Positions 4,467 to 11,382 are shown, counted from the first letter of the stretch. The stretch is DNA of 37,920 nucleotides from a virus (IMGVR_UViG_2737471826_000005), one strand, 5' to 3'. Numbers and translations are program-made. Notes: generated by a model from the sequence alone, not told the origin.

Positions 4467-5347
4467 ACACTCCTCGTCAGTATTCTGGCGGCCATTGCAC
4501 TTAATCCCGGAGACATGCGGTTGAATGCTGTTCCGACGGCGTTAAGCTGCCCGGAAACGGTATCCAGAGCACCTGCAATATTTCTTTTGTCCACACCACT
4601 CAGCGCAGACTGTGCCTGCTGTACATACGTGGCTGCTTCGCTGGCTGTTCTGGCCAGACTGATGGCATCGGGCATGGATTCAGAGAGTGCGTTAAACGCC
4701 GGAACACTTTTCCCCAGAGCCCCGGAGATATTACCCAGTCCGCTCATCAGCCCCGGCACACGGGTCAGTGCGACAACGGGGTTATCCTTCATTTTCTGTG
4801 TCACCCGAACGGCGCTGATAGTGGTCTGGAGTACAGACTGCGCCTGTTTCGCATAGTTGACGCCGTTGCGGATGAACTGCGCCACCCCGGAAGGTGAAGG
4901 AATGGCACCGGAGACCGCCCCGACACCCGGGAGCTTCGTGCGTATTGCCGGTGGTTGCAGAGGATTTTTCGGGTCACCGGTGTATTCCCGGAGAGACACG
5001 GTGGCACTGACAGCCAGCACGTTGCCGGTACTGTCAGTCTGCTCGCTGGTTGCAGTCACATCGGTAATCACGAACCAGCCGCGATAGTCACCGTTGCCGA
5101 AGACCAGCGCCAGTGCCTGATGGGCTTTCATGGCTGTTCGCAGTCTCGCCAGCTCCACATCGGGTACACAATAATGCTGATGGAAAACCAGAGTTATCTG
5201 GATTTCGTCCAGCCTGTCGCCGACGAACTGCAGGCCAGGCTTACCCCCGATGCGGGCATGCTCCGCATAATCGACGCCGAACGTGGCCTCGAAGCCGTCC
5301 CAGTAGGTAATCAGCTCAAACTCAATATCACCCAGTACGGCAAACAT
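4463..5347 (-). CDS. tail protein, gpU-like N-domain with Ala/Ser/Gly-rich C-terminal extension
   Basis: 294 aa immediately downstream of tape measure; N-terminus MFAVLGDIEFELIT is gpU-like. Confidence 0.6.
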   Translation of the reverse strand: MFAVLGDIEFELITYWDGFEATFGVDYAEHARIGGKPGLQFVGDRLDEIQITLVFHQHYCVPDVELARLRTAMKAHQALALVFGNGDYRGWFVITDVTATSEQTDSTGNVLAVSATVSLREYTGDPKNPLQPPAIRTKLPGVGAVSGAIPSPSGVAQFIRNGVNYAKQAQSVLQTTISAVRVTQKMKDNPVVALTRVPGLMSGLGNISGALGKSVPAFNALSESMPDAISLARTASEAATYVQQAQSALSGVDKRNIAGALDTVSGQLNAVGTAFNRMSPGLSAMAARILTRSV

Positions 5348-8300
5348 CAGCGGTACTCCTTACGTTGTTTCTGAGCCAGCAGACGCTCCAGCATTTTTTC
5401 CAGCTCATGCAGACTCATATTCAGGGCACCAGTCAGTCCTGCAGGCGCTGTGGTTTCCCTGCCATTGAGGAAAAACTGAGGATTAAAGCTGACCTGGATA
5501 CCACCAGACGTTCCACCGCCGGTTGCAGCTGCACCACGGCCTGAATATCCGGCAGCCAGGATTTCAGGCGAGGGGATACGGGGAACATCCGGTGTCATCT
5601 CATTTGCCAGACGTTGCCCTGGTAAAATCGATGCCCGGGTGGAGAGCGGAATAACGGGCATGGAAGACAAACTATTGATTACGGCTCCGATCGCATTTTT
5701 AGCAGACGACATAAACCCATTGATATCGGGCAACGGCATACTGAAGCGAACACCTGAAGTGTTATCCCGTATTTCTGGCCCCTGAATGCTCACGGGCATT
5801 CTGGGGAGCAGTTCACTGGCCATTCGCTGCCCGGCCAGAGCTGCAAGCGGAGTGGTCCGCTGCAGGCCAATGGCGGCCCCCTGCGCGATATTGTCACCAA
5901 AGCCCATAAACACGCGGCTCGGCGAATGAATGCCCAGCTTTTCGCTGAACCAGCCACTGATGCTGTCACCCATTCCGGTTACACTGGATTTGAGCGACTC
6001 CCATTTGTTTTTGATACCGTTAATCAGACCGTCGACAAGATGGCCACCGAAGTCGGTGAACTTTGCCGGCAGATCAACACCAAGATATTTCAGCGCAGCT
6101 GCAAAGGCTTTATAGAGCAGACCTGCCGGCGACCAGTTAATCAGCAGCTTACCAGTTCCCGCGATACCGCCGTTAAAGGCTTCCTGAATGTCAGCCCAGC
6201 ACTGTTTAAACCAGCTACTGATGCTGTCACCCATTCCGGTTACACTGGATTTGAGCGACCCCCATTTGTTTTTGATACCGTTAATCAGACCGTCGATAAG
6301 ATGGCCACCGAAGTCGGTGAACTTTGCCGGCAGAGCAACGCCGAAATATTTCAGCGCAGCCGCAAAGGCTTTATAGAGCAGGCCTGCCGGCGACCAGTTA
6401 ATCAGCAACTTACCAATTCCCACAATGCCGCCGTTAAAGGCTTCCTGAATGTCAGCCCAGCGCTGTTTAAACCAGCTACTGATGCTGTCACCCATTCCGG
6501 TTACACTGGATTTGAGCGACCCCCATTTGCTTTTGATACCGTTAATCAGACCGTCGATAAGATGGCCACCGAAGTCGGTGAACTTTGCCGGCAGAGCAAC
6601 GCCGAAATATTTCAGCGCAGCCGCAAAGGCTTTATAGAGCAGGCCTGCCGGCGACCAGTTAATCAGCAACTTACCAATTCCCACAATGCCGCCGTTAAAG
6701 GCTTCCTGAATGTCAGCCCAGCGCTGTTTAAACCAACCACTGACAGCCCCCCAGTTGCGGTAGATAAGGTAAGCTGCTGTCGCGACAGCGGTGATAACGA
6801 GACCGATGGGATTCATCATCAGCGCTCGCCCAATCCAGAGAACGGCACGTGCAGCGCTCATAAAACCGCGAACGAGGCTGCCCGCCAGAACTTTGCTGAG
6901 TTTCAGTCCTCCGCTGGTCAGTCGGCTGAATCCAGTGACAAGCCAGCGTAATTTGCCACCTTCTCCGAGTGCGGTAGTCAGTCGATGCCAGTTGGTCCGG
7001 AGTAAAACAGTAGTTTTCCAGACGTTCACAAAGGGGGAAATAAGGAGATTCAGCCCCAGTTTGAGACCAATAGTCGCTATCTTAATCGCAAGGAGCGCAC
7101 TGATGAGCTTAAAAGCCCCACTGACAAATTGCGGGTGAGTCGCTACCCAGTGTTTTGTCCCCTGAATGAGTGGGAGCAGTTCCTGAGTCAGAGAAATAAA
7201 AGATGGAGCTAATTGATCGCCCAGCGTAATTGCCAGATCGCGACTGCTGACCATAAGTGTTTTAGTGGCTTCAAGGGGAGATTTCAGCCGCTGATCATAA
7301 GCACTGGCAAGCAAATCGTTATCCGCAGCCCTGAGAGCACCGGCACGGATCTCTCGATATCTGTCCATGTTGGCCAGCATCGGGCGGATAAATGCCATGA
7401 CCTGCATATCCGCGAACATATCGCCCAGACCAAAGTTTTTCGCCAGAGCCTGAAGTGCCTCATCTCTTGCCGTATCATTCTTTATTTTCATGGCTGATTT
7501 GAAGCCGGCCAGCGCTTCGGGGCTTTTGGCATTGAGGTAACGTTCTATAACACTCAACATCCCTTCAATCGGAGAGATCCCCGCAGCTTTATAACTCGCA
7601 ATAGATCCCTGCAAATCAATACCCAGATCAGCAAACTGTTTCTGAGTATCGCGGGCAAAAATTTTGGTAAGAAAGTTTTTAAAATTATTGGCTGCTTCGT
7701 CGGTGGAACCTGCACCGATTTTTGCTATCTGGAGACTGGCCCCGATTTCAGCAACAGCCTCTTTTCCACTGGCAAGACCCGCCATCATTGGGGCCAGGGA
7801 CTGCATCCACTTGACCTGATCCGGGATTTCAAATGACCCCTGGTCACCGGCATAAGCCATAATATTCTGAACGGCACCAAAATCTCTGGCCGCACCTTTC
7901 AGGGAGTTTTGCCAGACTGCGGCCACTTTTGCCCAGTCCTGAGCAGACGTGCGTGTTGCCGTTGCCGCGCGGGCAATATCCGGCATCAGAAAACCGATAT
8001 CTGACACATTATCAATATTGTCGCTGATGAGTGAACCCACCGCCTCCTGCAGCTCATCCTGATACTGATTGTATTTAAGCGCCCAGCCTTTTATCTGTCC
8101 GGCAAGTGCATCCCGCGTTTTATTGTCATATTTTGCGGTGATCGACATATCAATCATTTTGTCCTGAAAAGACATGGACTGCTGAACGGCAGGGGAAACC
8201 GTATGATAAACAGTCTGTGCCATGCCATACGCTTCAATCCCCTGACCATACAGCGCCATGCGGTTAGCTTTCAGCGCATCACTGGTAGCGGATGCCGCTG

Positions 8301-8559
8301 ACAGACGGCGCTGCTGGCGCTCAATTTGCTCCATGGTGCGGCTTACCCGCAGCAGCTCGCTGTTGAGATGCTGCATCCGGGAAGAACCCAGTTGACCATA
8401 ACGTTCTGTTGCACGGGTTAAAGCGTTCTGACGTTCCTGCAGGCGGCGTGAGGTATCGCTCAGGGAATCAAGCGCACGGCGGGTACCGCTCATTGCAGAA
8501 CGGAATGTGCTGCCAATCATCCCGCCGATAACAACGCCGACTGAAAACTGTCCCGACAT
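5347..8559 (-). CDS. tail tape measure protein
   Basis: 1070-aa ORF, GGAGG RBS, downstream of chaperone pair, internal 87-aa tandem repeats. Confidence 0.9.
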   Translation of the reverse strand: MSGQFSVGVVIGGMIGSTFRSAMSGTRRALDSLSDTSRRLQERQNALTRATERYGQLGSSRMQHLNSELLRVSRTMEQIERQQRRLSAASATSDALKANRMALYGQGIEAYGMAQTVYHTVSPAVQQSMSFQDKMIDMSITAKYDNKTRDALAGQIKGWALKYNQYQDELQEAVGSLISDNIDNVSDIGFLMPDIARAATATRTSAQDWAKVAAVWQNSLKGAARDFGAVQNIMAYAGDQGSFEIPDQVKWMQSLAPMMAGLASGKEAVAEIGASLQIAKIGAGSTDEAANNFKNFLTKIFARDTQKQFADLGIDLQGSIASYKAAGISPIEGMLSVIERYLNAKSPEALAGFKSAMKIKNDTARDEALQALAKNFGLGDMFADMQVMAFIRPMLANMDRYREIRAGALRAADNDLLASAYDQRLKSPLEATKTLMVSSRDLAITLGDQLAPSFISLTQELLPLIQGTKHWVATHPQFVSGAFKLISALLAIKIATIGLKLGLNLLISPFVNVWKTTVLLRTNWHRLTTALGEGGKLRWLVTGFSRLTSGGLKLSKVLAGSLVRGFMSAARAVLWIGRALMMNPIGLVITAVATAAYLIYRNWGAVSGWFKQRWADIQEAFNGGIVGIGKLLINWSPAGLLYKAFAAALKYFGVALPAKFTDFGGHLIDGLINGIKSKWGSLKSSVTGMGDSISSWFKQRWADIQEAFNGGIVGIGKLLINWSPAGLLYKAFAAALKYFGVALPAKFTDFGGHLIDGLINGIKNKWGSLKSSVTGMGDSISSWFKQCWADIQEAFNGGIAGTGKLLINWSPAGLLYKAFAAALKYLGVDLPAKFTDFGGHLVDGLINGIKNKWESLKSSVTGMGDSISGWFSEKLGIHSPSRVFMGFGDNIAQGAAIGLQRTTPLAALAGQRMASELLPRMPVSIQGPEIRDNTSGVRFSMPLPDINGFMSSAKNAIGAVINSLSSMPVIPLSTRASILPGQRLANEMTPDVPRIPSPEILAAGYSGRGAAATGGGTSGGIQVSFNPQFFLNGRETTAPAGLTGALNMSLHELEKMLERLLAQKQRKEYR
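5932..6735. repeat. three tandem copies of a 261-bp unit inside the tape measure gene
   Basis: Unit starts at 5950, 6211, 6472 (period 261); copies 2 and 3 nearly identical, copy 1 slightly diverged; degenerate fourth start at 6733. Confidence 0.9.
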
Positions 8560-8634
8560 AGTGGTTAACCTCCGGGGAAGGTGAAAAGACGTGAGGGGAT
8601 AACGCAGAACAGCCGCTACTGGCGGCTGTCTGTA

Positions 8635-8892
8635 CTATGATTTGTCGCCGTACTCGCTTTTGATTTGCTCTTCAGCCTGCTCCAGCCACATCTCCAGATC
8701 GTCAGTATCGAGGGCATCAATCTCCCCCGGCTGAAACCGGAACCATCTCGCCAGCAGCCCCTGCGCCTGCGTCAGCGCCCTGGTTGCTCTCACCCATCCC
8801 CGTGATGAGCTGAAATCGTTTCTGTAACTGCAGGTAATCAGCCAGATCCATATTGTCGAGATCTTCCGGGAGAAGACCAGTACTGCGGGCAA
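8635..8892 (-). CDS. C-terminal extension frame of tail assembly chaperone (E'-like), reached by programmed frameshift
   Basis: Overlapping ORF in +1 frame relative to 8717..9052, no ATG of its own, ends just before tape measure gene. Confidence 0.55.
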   Translation of the reverse strand: MPAVLVFSRKISTIWIWLITCSYRNDFSSSRGWVRATRALTQAQGLLARWFRFQPGEIDALDTDDLEMWLEQAEEQIKSEYGDKS

Positions 8893-9052
8893 TCAGCGGT
8901 TCGTCCCAGTCTGCCGGGTTTTTGCTGATTTTGCGCACCTGCTTCAGGTCTTTTACCGTCAGGCGTTTCAGTTCAACCAGCTCAATTCTGGTGCCTGCAG
9001 CAGTGGTGAAGGGATAAGACAATTTAAAAGTATCGGATGGGGTCTGTGACAT
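8717..9052 (-). CDS. tail assembly chaperone (P2 gpE / Mu gp41-like), short form
   Basis: 111-aa ORF immediately upstream of tape measure. Confidence 0.7.
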   Translation of the reverse strand: MSQTPSDTFKLSYPFTTAAGTRIELVELKRLTVKDLKQVRKISKNPADWDEPLIARSTGLLPEDLDNMDLADYLQLQKRFQLITGMGESNQGADAGAGAAGEMVPVSAGGD

Positions 9053-9149
9053 GATTGTGCTCCTGTGTAAGTTCAGGGCAGTATGTCGGGAGAAGCGCGT
9101 GACGGATATTAAAGGAGATTAAGAAGAAGGGGCCGGAGCCCCTGTGATG

Positions 9150-9431
9150 TCAGCAAGTGCGAAACCCCTTGCAGTTACGCAGGAAAGCGATGAGAAGCGT
9201 CTTTCCCTCAGATTTGCCGATGCCGGAGAACCAGTGGTCGGGAGGCTCCCATGCTTCAATCAAATCCGCCAGTTTGCGGGCCTTTGAACGTGTGCAGTCA
9301 ATCGGGTCATTGGTTTTACGGGTATTAAAAAGGGTTTCCACCCCCGGAATATCAAGGAGGGTAAACCACGTACCATTTGACATGCCCAGTGCCGCACATC
9401 GTCCTCCTTTATCCGTCAGTTCAACACTCAC
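9150..9431 (-). CDS. hypothetical protein (extra gene between tube and chaperone)
   Basis: 93-aa ORF starting 3 nt after tube stop; no homolog recognised. Confidence 0.45.
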   Translation of the reverse strand: MSVELTDKGGRCAALGMSNGTWFTLLDIPGVETLFNTRKTNDPIDCTRSKARKLADLIEAWEPPDHWFSGIGKSEGKTLLIAFLRNCKGFRTC

Positions 9432-9433
9432 CG

Positions 9434-9955
9434 TCAGCCCCCGATATTGATACGGTAGTCAGTCAGTTGATCAACACCGCCGACCCGGAAGATGTTGGCC
9501 AGATAGTCCAGTTGCAGCAGCTCTTCACCATCCAGTACCTGTCTGATATACGTGCAGGTGAAGCTACTGGAGAACTCGGCGTTCTCGTGCTGTTTGAACG
9601 TCCCCAGCGGGTTCTTCTTGAACATAATCGTCAGGAAGGTGACCAGCGGGATTTCGTCAATCAGCCCCTGCGAGCTGTAGCGCTGGACGCTGGAACGACA
9701 CTGCAGTGCCAGCGACCTGTACGGGTTCGCGGCAGACAGCATCGCATCGCGGTAAAAGCTGTTCCATTTGATTTCGCCTTCCAGCTTGTCAAAACCAGCC
9801 GGGAGTTCCACCTTACCCACCATCCCCAGCGCCTTGTGTTCCTGCATAATCATGGAGACATCGGGGAGTTTGACTTCCTCAGCCCGTCCCAGCAGGTTAG
9901 TACCATCCAGATAGATGTTGGCATTCGTGATGCGGTTTATCTCAATCTTTGACAT
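9434..9955 (-). CDS. tail tube protein
   Basis: 173 aa, ATGA overlap with sheath stop. Confidence 0.85.
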   Translation of the reverse strand: MSKIEINRITNANIYLDGTNLLGRAEEVKLPDVSMIMQEHKALGMVGKVELPAGFDKLEGEIKWNSFYRDAMLSAANPYRSLALQCRSSVQRYSSQGLIDEIPLVTFLTIMFKKNPLGTFKQHENAEFSSSFTCTYIRQVLDGEELLQLDYLANIFRVGGVDQLTDYRINIGG

Positions 9956-11382
9956 CAGTTGCCCCCTTTCAGGGTTAACAGGTATTCCGAGGTGATCTCA
10001 GTCTCAAACGTCAGTCGCTCCAGCGGCGGTGGTGGCGTATATTTGTAGCTCAGCAACAGGTGCCCGGCGGCCAGCTCCGTCTCCGGATTGCGGGCCGGAT
10101 CAAACCAGCAACGGAAGCCCAGTACCGCACCATCACCAGTCATTTTGCGACCGTAGGCGTTGACCGACTCCGTCAGTGCATCAATCAGCGCCTGAGTAAT
10201 CGGCATGTCGATGTACTGCTGGCTGAAATAACGAATGGACTCGTTGATCACATCACCGGTGCGGCGAACGTTCTCAAAGTTACGCATATGGGTGACCGTT
10301 GGCCATGCTGCCGTCCGGTTACCCCACAGACGAAGGCCGCTGCCGTAACTGCTGAATACCGTGGTGATCCCCTGTTCGTTAAGCAGGTTCACCTCACTCT
10401 GCGGGTCATCAATCATCGCGGACAGCTGGCGCTCCACGCCGGTGATCCCCAGAATCTCCTGATTGGAGGATGACCACCAGTAGCCCTTGTCCAGATCGAC
10501 TCTGGCACGCAGACCTGCTGCACGCTGGCTGAGCGGCTCCAGACGCTCTGTGTTTGTCACCGGGTCATATACCTTCACATGCGGATAGCACAGACGGACG
10601 CGGTCGGAGCTGGTATTGAAGTTGATGGTGCCTTCCGGGCCACGACCTGCCAGAGCCTGTGCAAAGGTGGTACCGACAGGCGCATCAATGTAGGTTACCG
10701 CGCCCAGCTTCTCTGCCATGGCGATAAGCTCAACTGCGACACTCTTCTGGGTGCAGAACACCGGCGCAATCAGAATTTTGGCGAAATAGCCGTACAGGTT
10801 GAAGCTGTCGTTAAGCAGCTTCATGCCGGTTCGGTTTCCGGCGCTGTTCACCCCGCCGATGATGTCCGCCGCAGTCACCTTCGACGGGTCCGCGTACTCA
10901 TAGCTCACCTTCACGCTGCCACCGGCCTCAATAGCCTTGCCCAGGTTCGTGAGCACACCCGCCTGCGCATCAACACGGTAGTCCGTGTTCGCCGTGTGGG
11001 TGGTGCTGCCTTCACTGTTTTTCACCACCACATTAGCGACAACCGGATGCGCCAGTCTGGCCTGCCCTGTCGATTTGTCAAAGGTAACCACCTCATCCTC
11101 GATCGCCGTTTTATGTTTCGCCGGGTCGAGGACGTTAATGACCAGAACGGTGCCTGCACCATGGTCATAAATCGCATCCAGCGCCTGCGGAATGGTAAAG
11201 CCGGTGAACTGGCTGCCAAATGCCGCTGCGTCTTTCTCAGACAGGCACTGTACCAGCGTATTGACATCCCCCATCGGGGCGGTACCAATCAGGCCAATAA
11301 CGGCAGATTTCACCGTTTTAACCGGGCGGGCACCGTTTTCCACCTCAATGGTTTCGGGACCATGCAGATAGTTAGCTGCCAT
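9955..11382 (-). CDS. tail sheath protein
   Basis: 475-aa ORF preceding tube gene. Confidence 0.9.
   Translation of the reverse strand: MAANYLHGPETIEVENGARPVKTVKSAVIGLIGTAPMGDVNTLVQCLSEKDAAAFGSQFTGFTIPQALDAIYDHGAGTVLVINVLDPAKHKTAIEDEVVTFDKSTGQARLAHPVVANVVVKNSEGSTTHTANTDYRVDAQAGVLTNLGKAIEAGGSVKVSYEYADPSKVTAADIIGGVNSAGNRTGMKLLNDSFNLYGYFAKILIAPVFCTQKSVAVELIAMAEKLGAVTYIDAPVGTTFAQALAGRGPEGTINFNTSSDRVRLCYPHVKVYDPVTNTERLEPLSQRAAGLRARVDLDKGYWWSSSNQEILGITGVERQLSAMIDDPQSEVNLLNEQGITTVFSSYGSGLRLWGNRTAAWPTVTHMRNFENVRRTGDVINESIRYFSQQYIDMPITQALIDALTESVNAYGRKMTGDGAVLGFRCWFDPARNPETELAAGHLLLSYKYTPPPPLERLTFETEITSEYLLTLKGGN

Follow-up and report, generated by a model that had tools for sequence, protein, structure and literature searches.

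Frameshifted tail assembly chaperones, forward shifts included, are an already established principle, and the chaperones of different phages use -1, -2 or +1 changes of frame (PMC5009743). The P2 and Mu genes offer the closest comparisons for the locus described here. In P2 (GenBank AF063097), the gene lies between those of the tail tube and the tape measure and encodes gpE, a PF10109 protein of 91 aa, together with gpE+E' (142 aa), in which a -1 shift on the U-rich heptamer G_GTT_TTT_TG, close to the E stop, adds a GpE-like extension (PF06528). In Mu, the corresponding pair gp41/gp41-42 depends on a verified -2 frameshift (Xu, Hendrix & Duda 2004, PMID 15469818). The Mu shift takes place on CGG_GGG_CGA, where slipping back by two bases gives perfect GGG re-pairing. 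Forward shifts have been annotated in 350 of the 2718 SEA-PHAGES chaperone slippery-site cases (PMC10274946) and in the chaperone of the haloarchaeal virus HSTV-2 (PMC5009743). These forward cases share both device and direction with the gene studied here, but their chaperone sequences are unrelated and their hosts are different.

The tail chaperone locus and its +1 extension

The window that we analysed, 37,920 nucleotides of viral DNA (IMGVR_UViG_2737471826_000005), is a BcepMu-like (Bcepmuvirus) prophage of E. coli carrying P2-type tail genes, that is, a Mu/P2 hybrid. It shares 99.9% identity with Escherichia phage PhiKM (Bcepmuvirus), and the prophage was found in 641 of 5426 complete E. 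coli genomes (~12%). Its tail genes around the chaperone are the following:

9955-11382, minus strand, sheath gene.
9434-9955, minus strand, tail tube gene (FII-like), upstream neighbour of the chaperone (PF04985, E 2.9e-53).
9150-9431, minus strand, 93-aa ORF between the tube gene and the E gene.
8717..9052, minus strand, E-like tail assembly chaperone ORF, 0-frame product of 111 aa starting with ATG (PF10109, Phage_TAC_7).
8635..8892, minus strand, E' extension ORF in the open +1 frame, 85 codons (phrog_8286, E 7.9e-34).
5347-8559, minus strand, tape measure gene, 1070 aa, downstream neighbour (PF10145, E 1.3e-20; phrog_28).

The tube, E and tape measure genes are all on the minus strand, with E between the other two, and the E protein matches PF10109 (E 5.5e-21, 74.8 bits against a cutoff of 25), the family that also includes P2 gpE and Mu gp41. 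Position and family match bear out the first-pass annotation of this stretch as a tail chaperone pair. The E protein also matches phrog_166 ('tail protein') and is named 'phage tail assembly protein' in RefSeq; no NCBIfam model matched it or the fusion product.

Several other features of the region were recorded. The 93-aa ORF belongs to phrog_1239, with a sub-threshold match to DUF7739 (E 3.5e-5), and occupies the gap between tube and chaperone genes, a slot that holds no gene in P2 or BcepMu. A terminator-like hairpin (9128-9143, minus strand; AGGGGC-TCCG-GCCCCT followed by TCTTCTTAAT) separates this ORF from the E gene, midway through the tail operon. A second, stable hairpin (8603-8627, minus strand; region ACAGCCGC-CAGUA-GCGGCUGU; -18.9 kcal/mol, z -3.0), uncalled by a simple terminator scan, is found within the 75-nt gap from the E' stop to the tape measure start. 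In E. coli ABU 83972 (NC_017631; L002, 2442-4101), RefSeq divides the tape measure gene between a 135-aa 'hypothetical protein' and a tape measure CDS lying downstream, which suggests that the tape measure gene is disrupted in this strain. An 8.2-kb contig (L084, NZ_PJIO01000028.1, coverage ~7) labelled 'Arthrobacter sp. GMC3' also encodes an E protein, which shares 99% identity with the one from the E. coli prophage; the contig is very likely a contamination of this actinobacterial assembly.

The ORF listing and three-frame translation place the E' ORF one base downstream of the E frame (codon starts p mod 3 of 1 for E and 0 for the extension), with an overlap of 176 nt between both ORFs. This is the +1 relationship, equivalent to -2, that the first-pass annotation had described. 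Its headline, a +1 instead of a -1 geometry, is therefore correct and unusual, although not new in kind given the forward and Mu -2 chaperone shifts already known. It had also considered the -1 frame as closed by a stop within the overlap, which holds only in part: stops do exist in the 176 nt, but the frame reopens over the last 52 nt of E and continues for 33 codons past the E stop, so that stops alone do not exclude a -1 event. A -1 extension is excluded because this frame has no coding signature (synonymous differences ~0) and no homology.

Three scans of sequence collections yielded ~190 related loci, and the +1 geometry was present in 119 distinct sequences ranging from Enterobacterales to Burkholderia and Pseudomonas. 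The groups with a +1 extension comprised every enterobacterial relative, a Pseudomonas MAG, Paraburkholderia, Burkholderia (BcepMu included) and several uncultured clades; when 79 further viral contigs were also scanned, the arrangement held in all the BcepMu-type relatives found. The suggested comparison with homologous chaperone pairs thus returned the same geometry throughout these 119 sequences, which means that the +1 relationship is not an indel artefact of the window, and an indel restoring a -1 relationship, which had been proposed as a possible refutation, did not materialise. Overall, an extension reachable solely through a +1/-2 change of frame, with its geometry kept across the family, is supported.

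An origin of the +1 relationship in a sequencing indel or a decaying pseudogene might be suspected from the indels or premature stops seen in the chaperone gene of seven loci (L022, L078, L082, L083, L094, L102 and L103). These cases are sporadic; over 1.1 kb, many complete E. coli genomes match the region with 100% identity, and the 119 distinct sequences come from several bacterial orders and have a strong coding signature in both frames. Such an artefact, to which we assign a negligible probability, can be regarded as already refuted by the comparative data. One of the premature stops is a common variant: in L022 and L023, 98% identical to the window, CAG becomes TAG at codon 91 (equivalent to 8782-8780), leaving an E protein of 90 aa and an intact +1 frame, and the 90-aa variant protein cluster (P0014) occurs on 914 contigs.

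The +1 ORF is a real coding region and not a chance ORF. Its peptide QAQGLLARWFRFQPGEIDALDTDDLEMWLEQAEEQIK is nearly invariant among enterobacterial relatives (~64 unique sequences), in which most DNA changes are synonymous.

A candidate +1 site at an invariant UUU_C

The candidate junctions within the overlap, and the domain encoded by the extension, are located as follows:

8812..8818, minus strand, proposed +1 shift site CGA_UUU_C, with CGA (8818-8816) in the ribosomal E site, UUU (8815-8813) in the P site and C at 8812.
8797..8803, minus strand, secondary, less likely candidate ACG_GGG_A, a +1 slip of tRNA-Gly just before an invariant +1-frame Trp.
8724..8728, minus strand, G5 run, candidate of the first-pass annotation, rejected; part of P-G-E in the +1 frame.
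8656..8754, minus strand, GpE-like (P2 gpE') domain LARWFRFQPGEIDALDTDDLEMWLEQAEEQIKS, residues 100-132 of the predicted 138-aa product.

Comparison of the sequences leads us to propose that a long E+E' chaperone is probably made by a +1 slip of the P-site tRNA-Phe at CGA_UUU_C. Most ribosomes would finish at the E stop and yield the 111-aa E protein, and a minority would shift at CGA_UUU_C (8818-8812). With UUU (Phe80) in the P site, the peptidyl-tRNA-Phe (anticodon GAA) would move one base onto the fully cognate UUC (8814-8812); reading would then resume at AGC (8811-8809) and end at TAG (8637-8635), and the translated part of E' would be 8638-8811, or 58 codons. The predicted product of 138 aa, with ...LQKRF|SSSRGWVR as favoured junction peptide, would comprise the E domain (residues 1-80), a variable linker, SSSRGWVRATRALT, and a helical domain of the GpE-like type. 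If the pair works as lambda gpG/gpGT and P2 gpE/gpE+E' do, the tape measure protein would be coated by both forms, and the long, less abundant one would bring in the tube subunits. A frameshift of a few percent would suffice, since the efficiency of the Mu shift is ~2.2% (PMC3498833) and the lambda G:GT ratio is ~30:1 (PMC5009743).

The proposed site is situated ~30 codons upstream of the G-run and 31 codons before the E stop, which implies that ~95 nt are read in two frames. Stop codons in the relatives delimit the shift, provided that its position is homologous across the family. In the +1 frame, a stop precedes TTT by only 4 codons in four loci (L108, L134, L138 and L140) and by 6 codons in an enterobacterial one (L086); in the 0 frame, a stop follows TTT after 5 codons in L156, 6 in L145 and 10 in L022/L023. 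Under that assumption, these bounds place the shift within ~9 codons, where the sole invariant feature is an in-frame TTT followed by C.

All 119 TTT-bearing unique +1 sequences have TTT_C, at loci whose GC content goes from 47 to 68%. The motif takes the form TTT_CGN (CGC/CGU/CGG) in Burkholderia, Pseudomonas and other clades, including the exact UCC_UUU_CG[C/U] in several relatives, and CGA_TTT_CAR/CAT in the whole enterobacterial clade. TTT makes up between 5 and 79% of the Phe codons in the flanking genes, and only 1 of 21 in a BcepMu-type locus. At the TTT codon itself, no synonymous change was seen in any of four clades, and at the Asp and Arg codons next to it 37-54% of sequence pairs differ synonymously. 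Similarly, the enterobacterial CGA, a rare Arg codon, and TTT are both nucleotide-invariant in 64 unique sequences in which neighbouring codons vary synonymously. In the E protein, Phe80 and the next Arg are themselves conserved, which accounts for part of the motif but not for the codon choice.

TTT_C is missing from Mu (-2), from P2 (-1) and from the members of the family that shift by -1 and carry G_GGA_AAG. In the latter (L142, L149, L154 and L194), the extension is in the -1 frame and this lambda-type heptamer lies shortly before the E stop. One locus with +1 geometry but no Phe (L161, IMGVR_UViG_3300003320_000475) has CTT_C, with a prfB-type shifty codon, at that place. This locus (1201-1740) contains a tandemly duplicated PF10109-like domain (~180 aa) and has kept the +1 extension, with CTT_CAG and CTT_CTT_CGG in place of the TTT_C of its relatives.

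In the +1 frame, the third T of TTT serves as second base of the codon TTC, and its invariance would be expected as well from a slightly upstream shift combined with selection for the +1 Phe. However, the +1-frame stops just 4-6 codons upstream leave little room for this possibility. On the downstream side, the four +1 residues after Phe80 are variable and the 0 frame is conserved there (Q-x-[IVL]-T-G), so that slips at codons 80 and 85 cannot be told apart by conservation alone.

A slip at the latter position would be that of tRNA-Gly by +1 at ACG_GGG_A (8803-8797), giving ...FQLITG|WVRATR.... Synonymous variation affects both the 0-frame Thr84 codon and the +1 'GGN', the +1 Trp is invariant, and the switch in selection becomes visible at codons 85-86. 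The position also agrees with that of G_GGA_AAG in the -1 relatives and is near the P2 site, and Mu likewise has a Trp right after its shift site (GG|EWLR). Nevertheless, several enterobacterial relatives have GGC, GGT or AGC instead of GGG, and the next base can be any of the four, so that there is no conserved re-pairing at ACG_GGG_A. The site has no equivalent in Burkholderia, Pseudomonas and other clades, and in non-enterobacterial clades either the Trp comes just 3 codons after the Phe or a 0-frame stop comes 5-6 codons after TTT. As it also leaves the invariance of CGA and TTT unexplained, we consider a shift at ACG_GGG_A unlikely.

The sequence context of CGA_UUU_C yielded no stimulator of the shift. 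prfB-type +1 sites combine a shift codon, a stop codon in frame right after it and an SD-like element placed 3 nt upstream; here, the A-site codon is CAG in the window, CAG or CAA, neither of them rare, in the enterobacterial sequences and CGN in other relatives, and no SD-like element was found upstream of UUU. Downstream of the site, RNAalifold predicted a structure of -9 kcal/mol with no covariation. The one notable pairing, of AACGAUUUC with GAGRUGGUU 63 nt downstream, joins two invariant segments and is hence uninformative. As for the direction of the shift, a Mu-type -2 event is unsupported: -2 re-pairing at CGA_UUU would fall on GAU and cannot work in the window, nor in the relatives apart from the two that have UUU_UUU_CGN.

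Other junctions, the G-run and independent initiation

The first-pass annotation had proposed as slip site the G-run located two codons before the E stop, where the mRNA reads TCA GCC GGG GGA GAT TGA in the E frame (stop at 8719-8717). A shift there, by +1 (GGG to GGG) or by -2 (GGA to GGG), would give a product ending ...VSAG(G)EIDAL..., with the junction ...MVPVSAG(G)|EIDALDTDDLEMWLEQAEEQIK, i.e., MVPVSAG(G)-EIDALDTDD. The attraction of this site lies in the perfect re-pairing possible on GGG_GG, its proximity to a stop codon, the G5 run used by the verified -2 shift of Mu, and the existence of several database proteins fused exactly at this point (P0003-P0005, P0007; L083, L094). The comparative evidence goes in the opposite direction. 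The E gene of most enterobacterial relatives (the 102- to 106-aa type) ends with GTG GTT TAG, 7 codons before the run, which places the run outside their E frame. The run itself is not conserved, becoming CCT/CCA GGG GAG or CCG AGT GAG, changes that are synonymous or conservative in the +1 frame. The run is, in addition, preceded by at least 12-25 codons under purifying selection in the +1 frame: starting around codon 89-97, changes are synonymous in +1 and non-synonymous in 0, as exemplified by GGG GCT GCT becoming GGG TCT CCT or GGG ACT GCT.

The domain structure of the product points the same way. The window fusion product aligns with positions 4-36/37 of PF06528 (E 0.0015, 18.4 bits, below the gathering score of 23), 8 of the 18 family fusion products match this model at E <= 0.01, and P2 FHWPPSELYPMSLTELITWREKA is in register with FRFQPGEIDALDTDDLEMWLEQA of the window in the alignment, pointing to homology of the extension with P2 gpE'. 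The PF06528 match is kept by the products joined upstream and lost by those joined at the G-run, in the +1 or the -2 version. The P-G-E encoded by the run lies midway along the GpE-like domain, and joining at this point would deprive the product of the N-terminal third of that domain, with its conserved ARWFRF.

As for the fused database proteins, they result from sporadic deletions of one base, most of them in singleton Logan assemblies, and other fusions occur at unrelated positions. The deletions (P0003-P0005, P0007, L083, L094 and L078) affect or adjoin the G5/CC run (equivalent to 8724-8731) and put the C-terminal half of E' in frame with E; they may be either homopolymer sequencing errors or decaying prophages, and such alleles would truncate the true E+E' product. 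More generally, natural in-frame E-E' fusions were uninformative as a guide to the junction, since the indels occur at scattered positions. A Mu-type -2 shift at the window G5 was rejected as well: the run is read GGG_GGA, is inside the GpE-like domain, past the E stop in most relatives, and unconserved. With most E genes ending upstream, synonymous +1 variation in the run and the PF06528 match lost, the G-run proposal was not sustained, and we regard a shift at this point as very improbable. If the shift occurs at UUU_C, the silent change CCGGGGGAG to CCAGGTGAG would leave E+E' synthesis unaffected.

Two additional sites were discarded. GCA_GGG_G (8764-8758) would allow a +1 slip in the window, but relatives have T, A or C as fourth base, or GGC as the codon, all these changes being synonymous in +1, and the site is downstream of the premature E stop of L022/L023. 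A prfB-like GUU_UAG with an SD-like GAGGUG just upstream is present in the relatives of the 104-aa type; this stop is absent from the window, and a product joined at that point would be devoid of the conserved QAQGLLARW.

Finally, E' might involve no recoding at all, being translated from an internal start such as the GTG at 8793-8791, the choice of gene callers and phrog_8286, or not being expressed. Stand-alone ORFs of this kind have indeed been annotated (the KP12 'hypothetical protein'; phrog_8286), and a GGGG motif lies upstream of the GTG. However, this GTG becomes GCA, CTG or CTA in relatives, the SD-like GGGGA is just 3 nt away from it, and the relatives share no conserved start codon anywhere in the +1 frame, which makes it unlikely that E' is initiated on its own. 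Moreover, in lambda, P2 and Mu the extension functions solely when fused to the chaperone domain (PMC5009743). The absence of recoding would also leave the invariance of TTT_C unexplained, and we judge it quite improbable.

Comparison with known recoding systems and significance

Like P2, the window has the tube-chaperone-tape measure order and a PF10109 E protein followed by a GpE-like extension, and the products, predicted for the window, are of similar size (91/142 aa in P2, 111/138 aa in the window). In the alignment, the P2 junction comes within 3-5 residues of the one proposed for the window, GGT_TTT_TTG being 3-5 residues from window F80. The two differ in the direction of the shift (-1 in P2, +1 in the window), in the site, which is a single UUU_C 31 codons before the stop instead of a U-rich heptamer close to it, and in the PF06528 score of the extension, which in the window stays below the gathering threshold (18.4 versus 23 bits). 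Mu and the window share a PF10109 chaperone at the same position, and an extension in the same relative frame (+1 = -2) that begins with a Trp-hydrophobic motif and ends with a GpE-like helix pattern. However, the G5 of the window is in a different register from that of Mu, inside the extension domain and unconserved, and the homologous Phe codon is TTC in Mu and TTT in the window.

UUU_CGN is the +1 motif of influenza PA-X and the amalgaviruses (PMC3498833). As in influenza A PA-X (UCC_UUU_CGU) and the amalgaviruses, the P-site tRNA-Phe would move here from UUU to UUC, and most relatives of the window carry UUU_CGN. These are, by contrast, eukaryotic viruses in which a slowly decoded CGN codon in the A site is thought to help, whereas the window has CGA_UUU_CAG. 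CGC is a common codon in Burkholderia. In E. coli, Schwartz and Curran (1997; cited in PMC3789692) reportedly recognised UUU followed by a pyrimidine as a +1 shift-prone site. On balance, we lean towards the idea that the BcepMu/P2-type chaperone family uses a conserved +1 signal, [U/C]UU_C, as UUU_CGN in most lineages and CGA_UUU_CAR in enterobacteria, that is, the core motif of PA-X and the amalgaviruses operating on bacterial ribosomes.

In BcepMu (AY539836), gp41 corresponds to the window E protein and gp42 to its +1 ORF. The record (L004, 4603-5364) presents gp42 as lambda-G-like and gp43 as a slippage product (-1 relative to gp42), with gp41 unlinked to gp42. Homology with P2 E+E' supports a different assignment, in which gp41 would be extended into gp42 by a +1 shift; as to gp43, located in the 275-nt gap that precedes the tape measure gene, it may be a spurious high-GC ORF.

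What appears to have gone unannotated so far is the +1 link between E and E' in the BcepMu-type family. No joined E-E' feature was found in the PhiKM, KP12 or RefSeq annotations, RefSeq being devoid of any extension, and literature text searches, whose scope left out the BcepMu genome paper, retrieved no published +1 model for BcepMu-type chaperones. Looking for an in-frame TTT_C ~8 codons past the DLAD motif in the PF10109 domain would, as a rule for the whole family, allow annotators to join E and E' correctly. The gene is also a possible bacterial example of a UUU_C(GN) forward shift. Together with its relatives it forms a comparative series, +1 at UUU_C, -1 at G_GGA_AAG and -2 at G5, with nearly the same protein junction; if true, a single protein junction would be served by three different recoding mechanisms, constituting a natural series.
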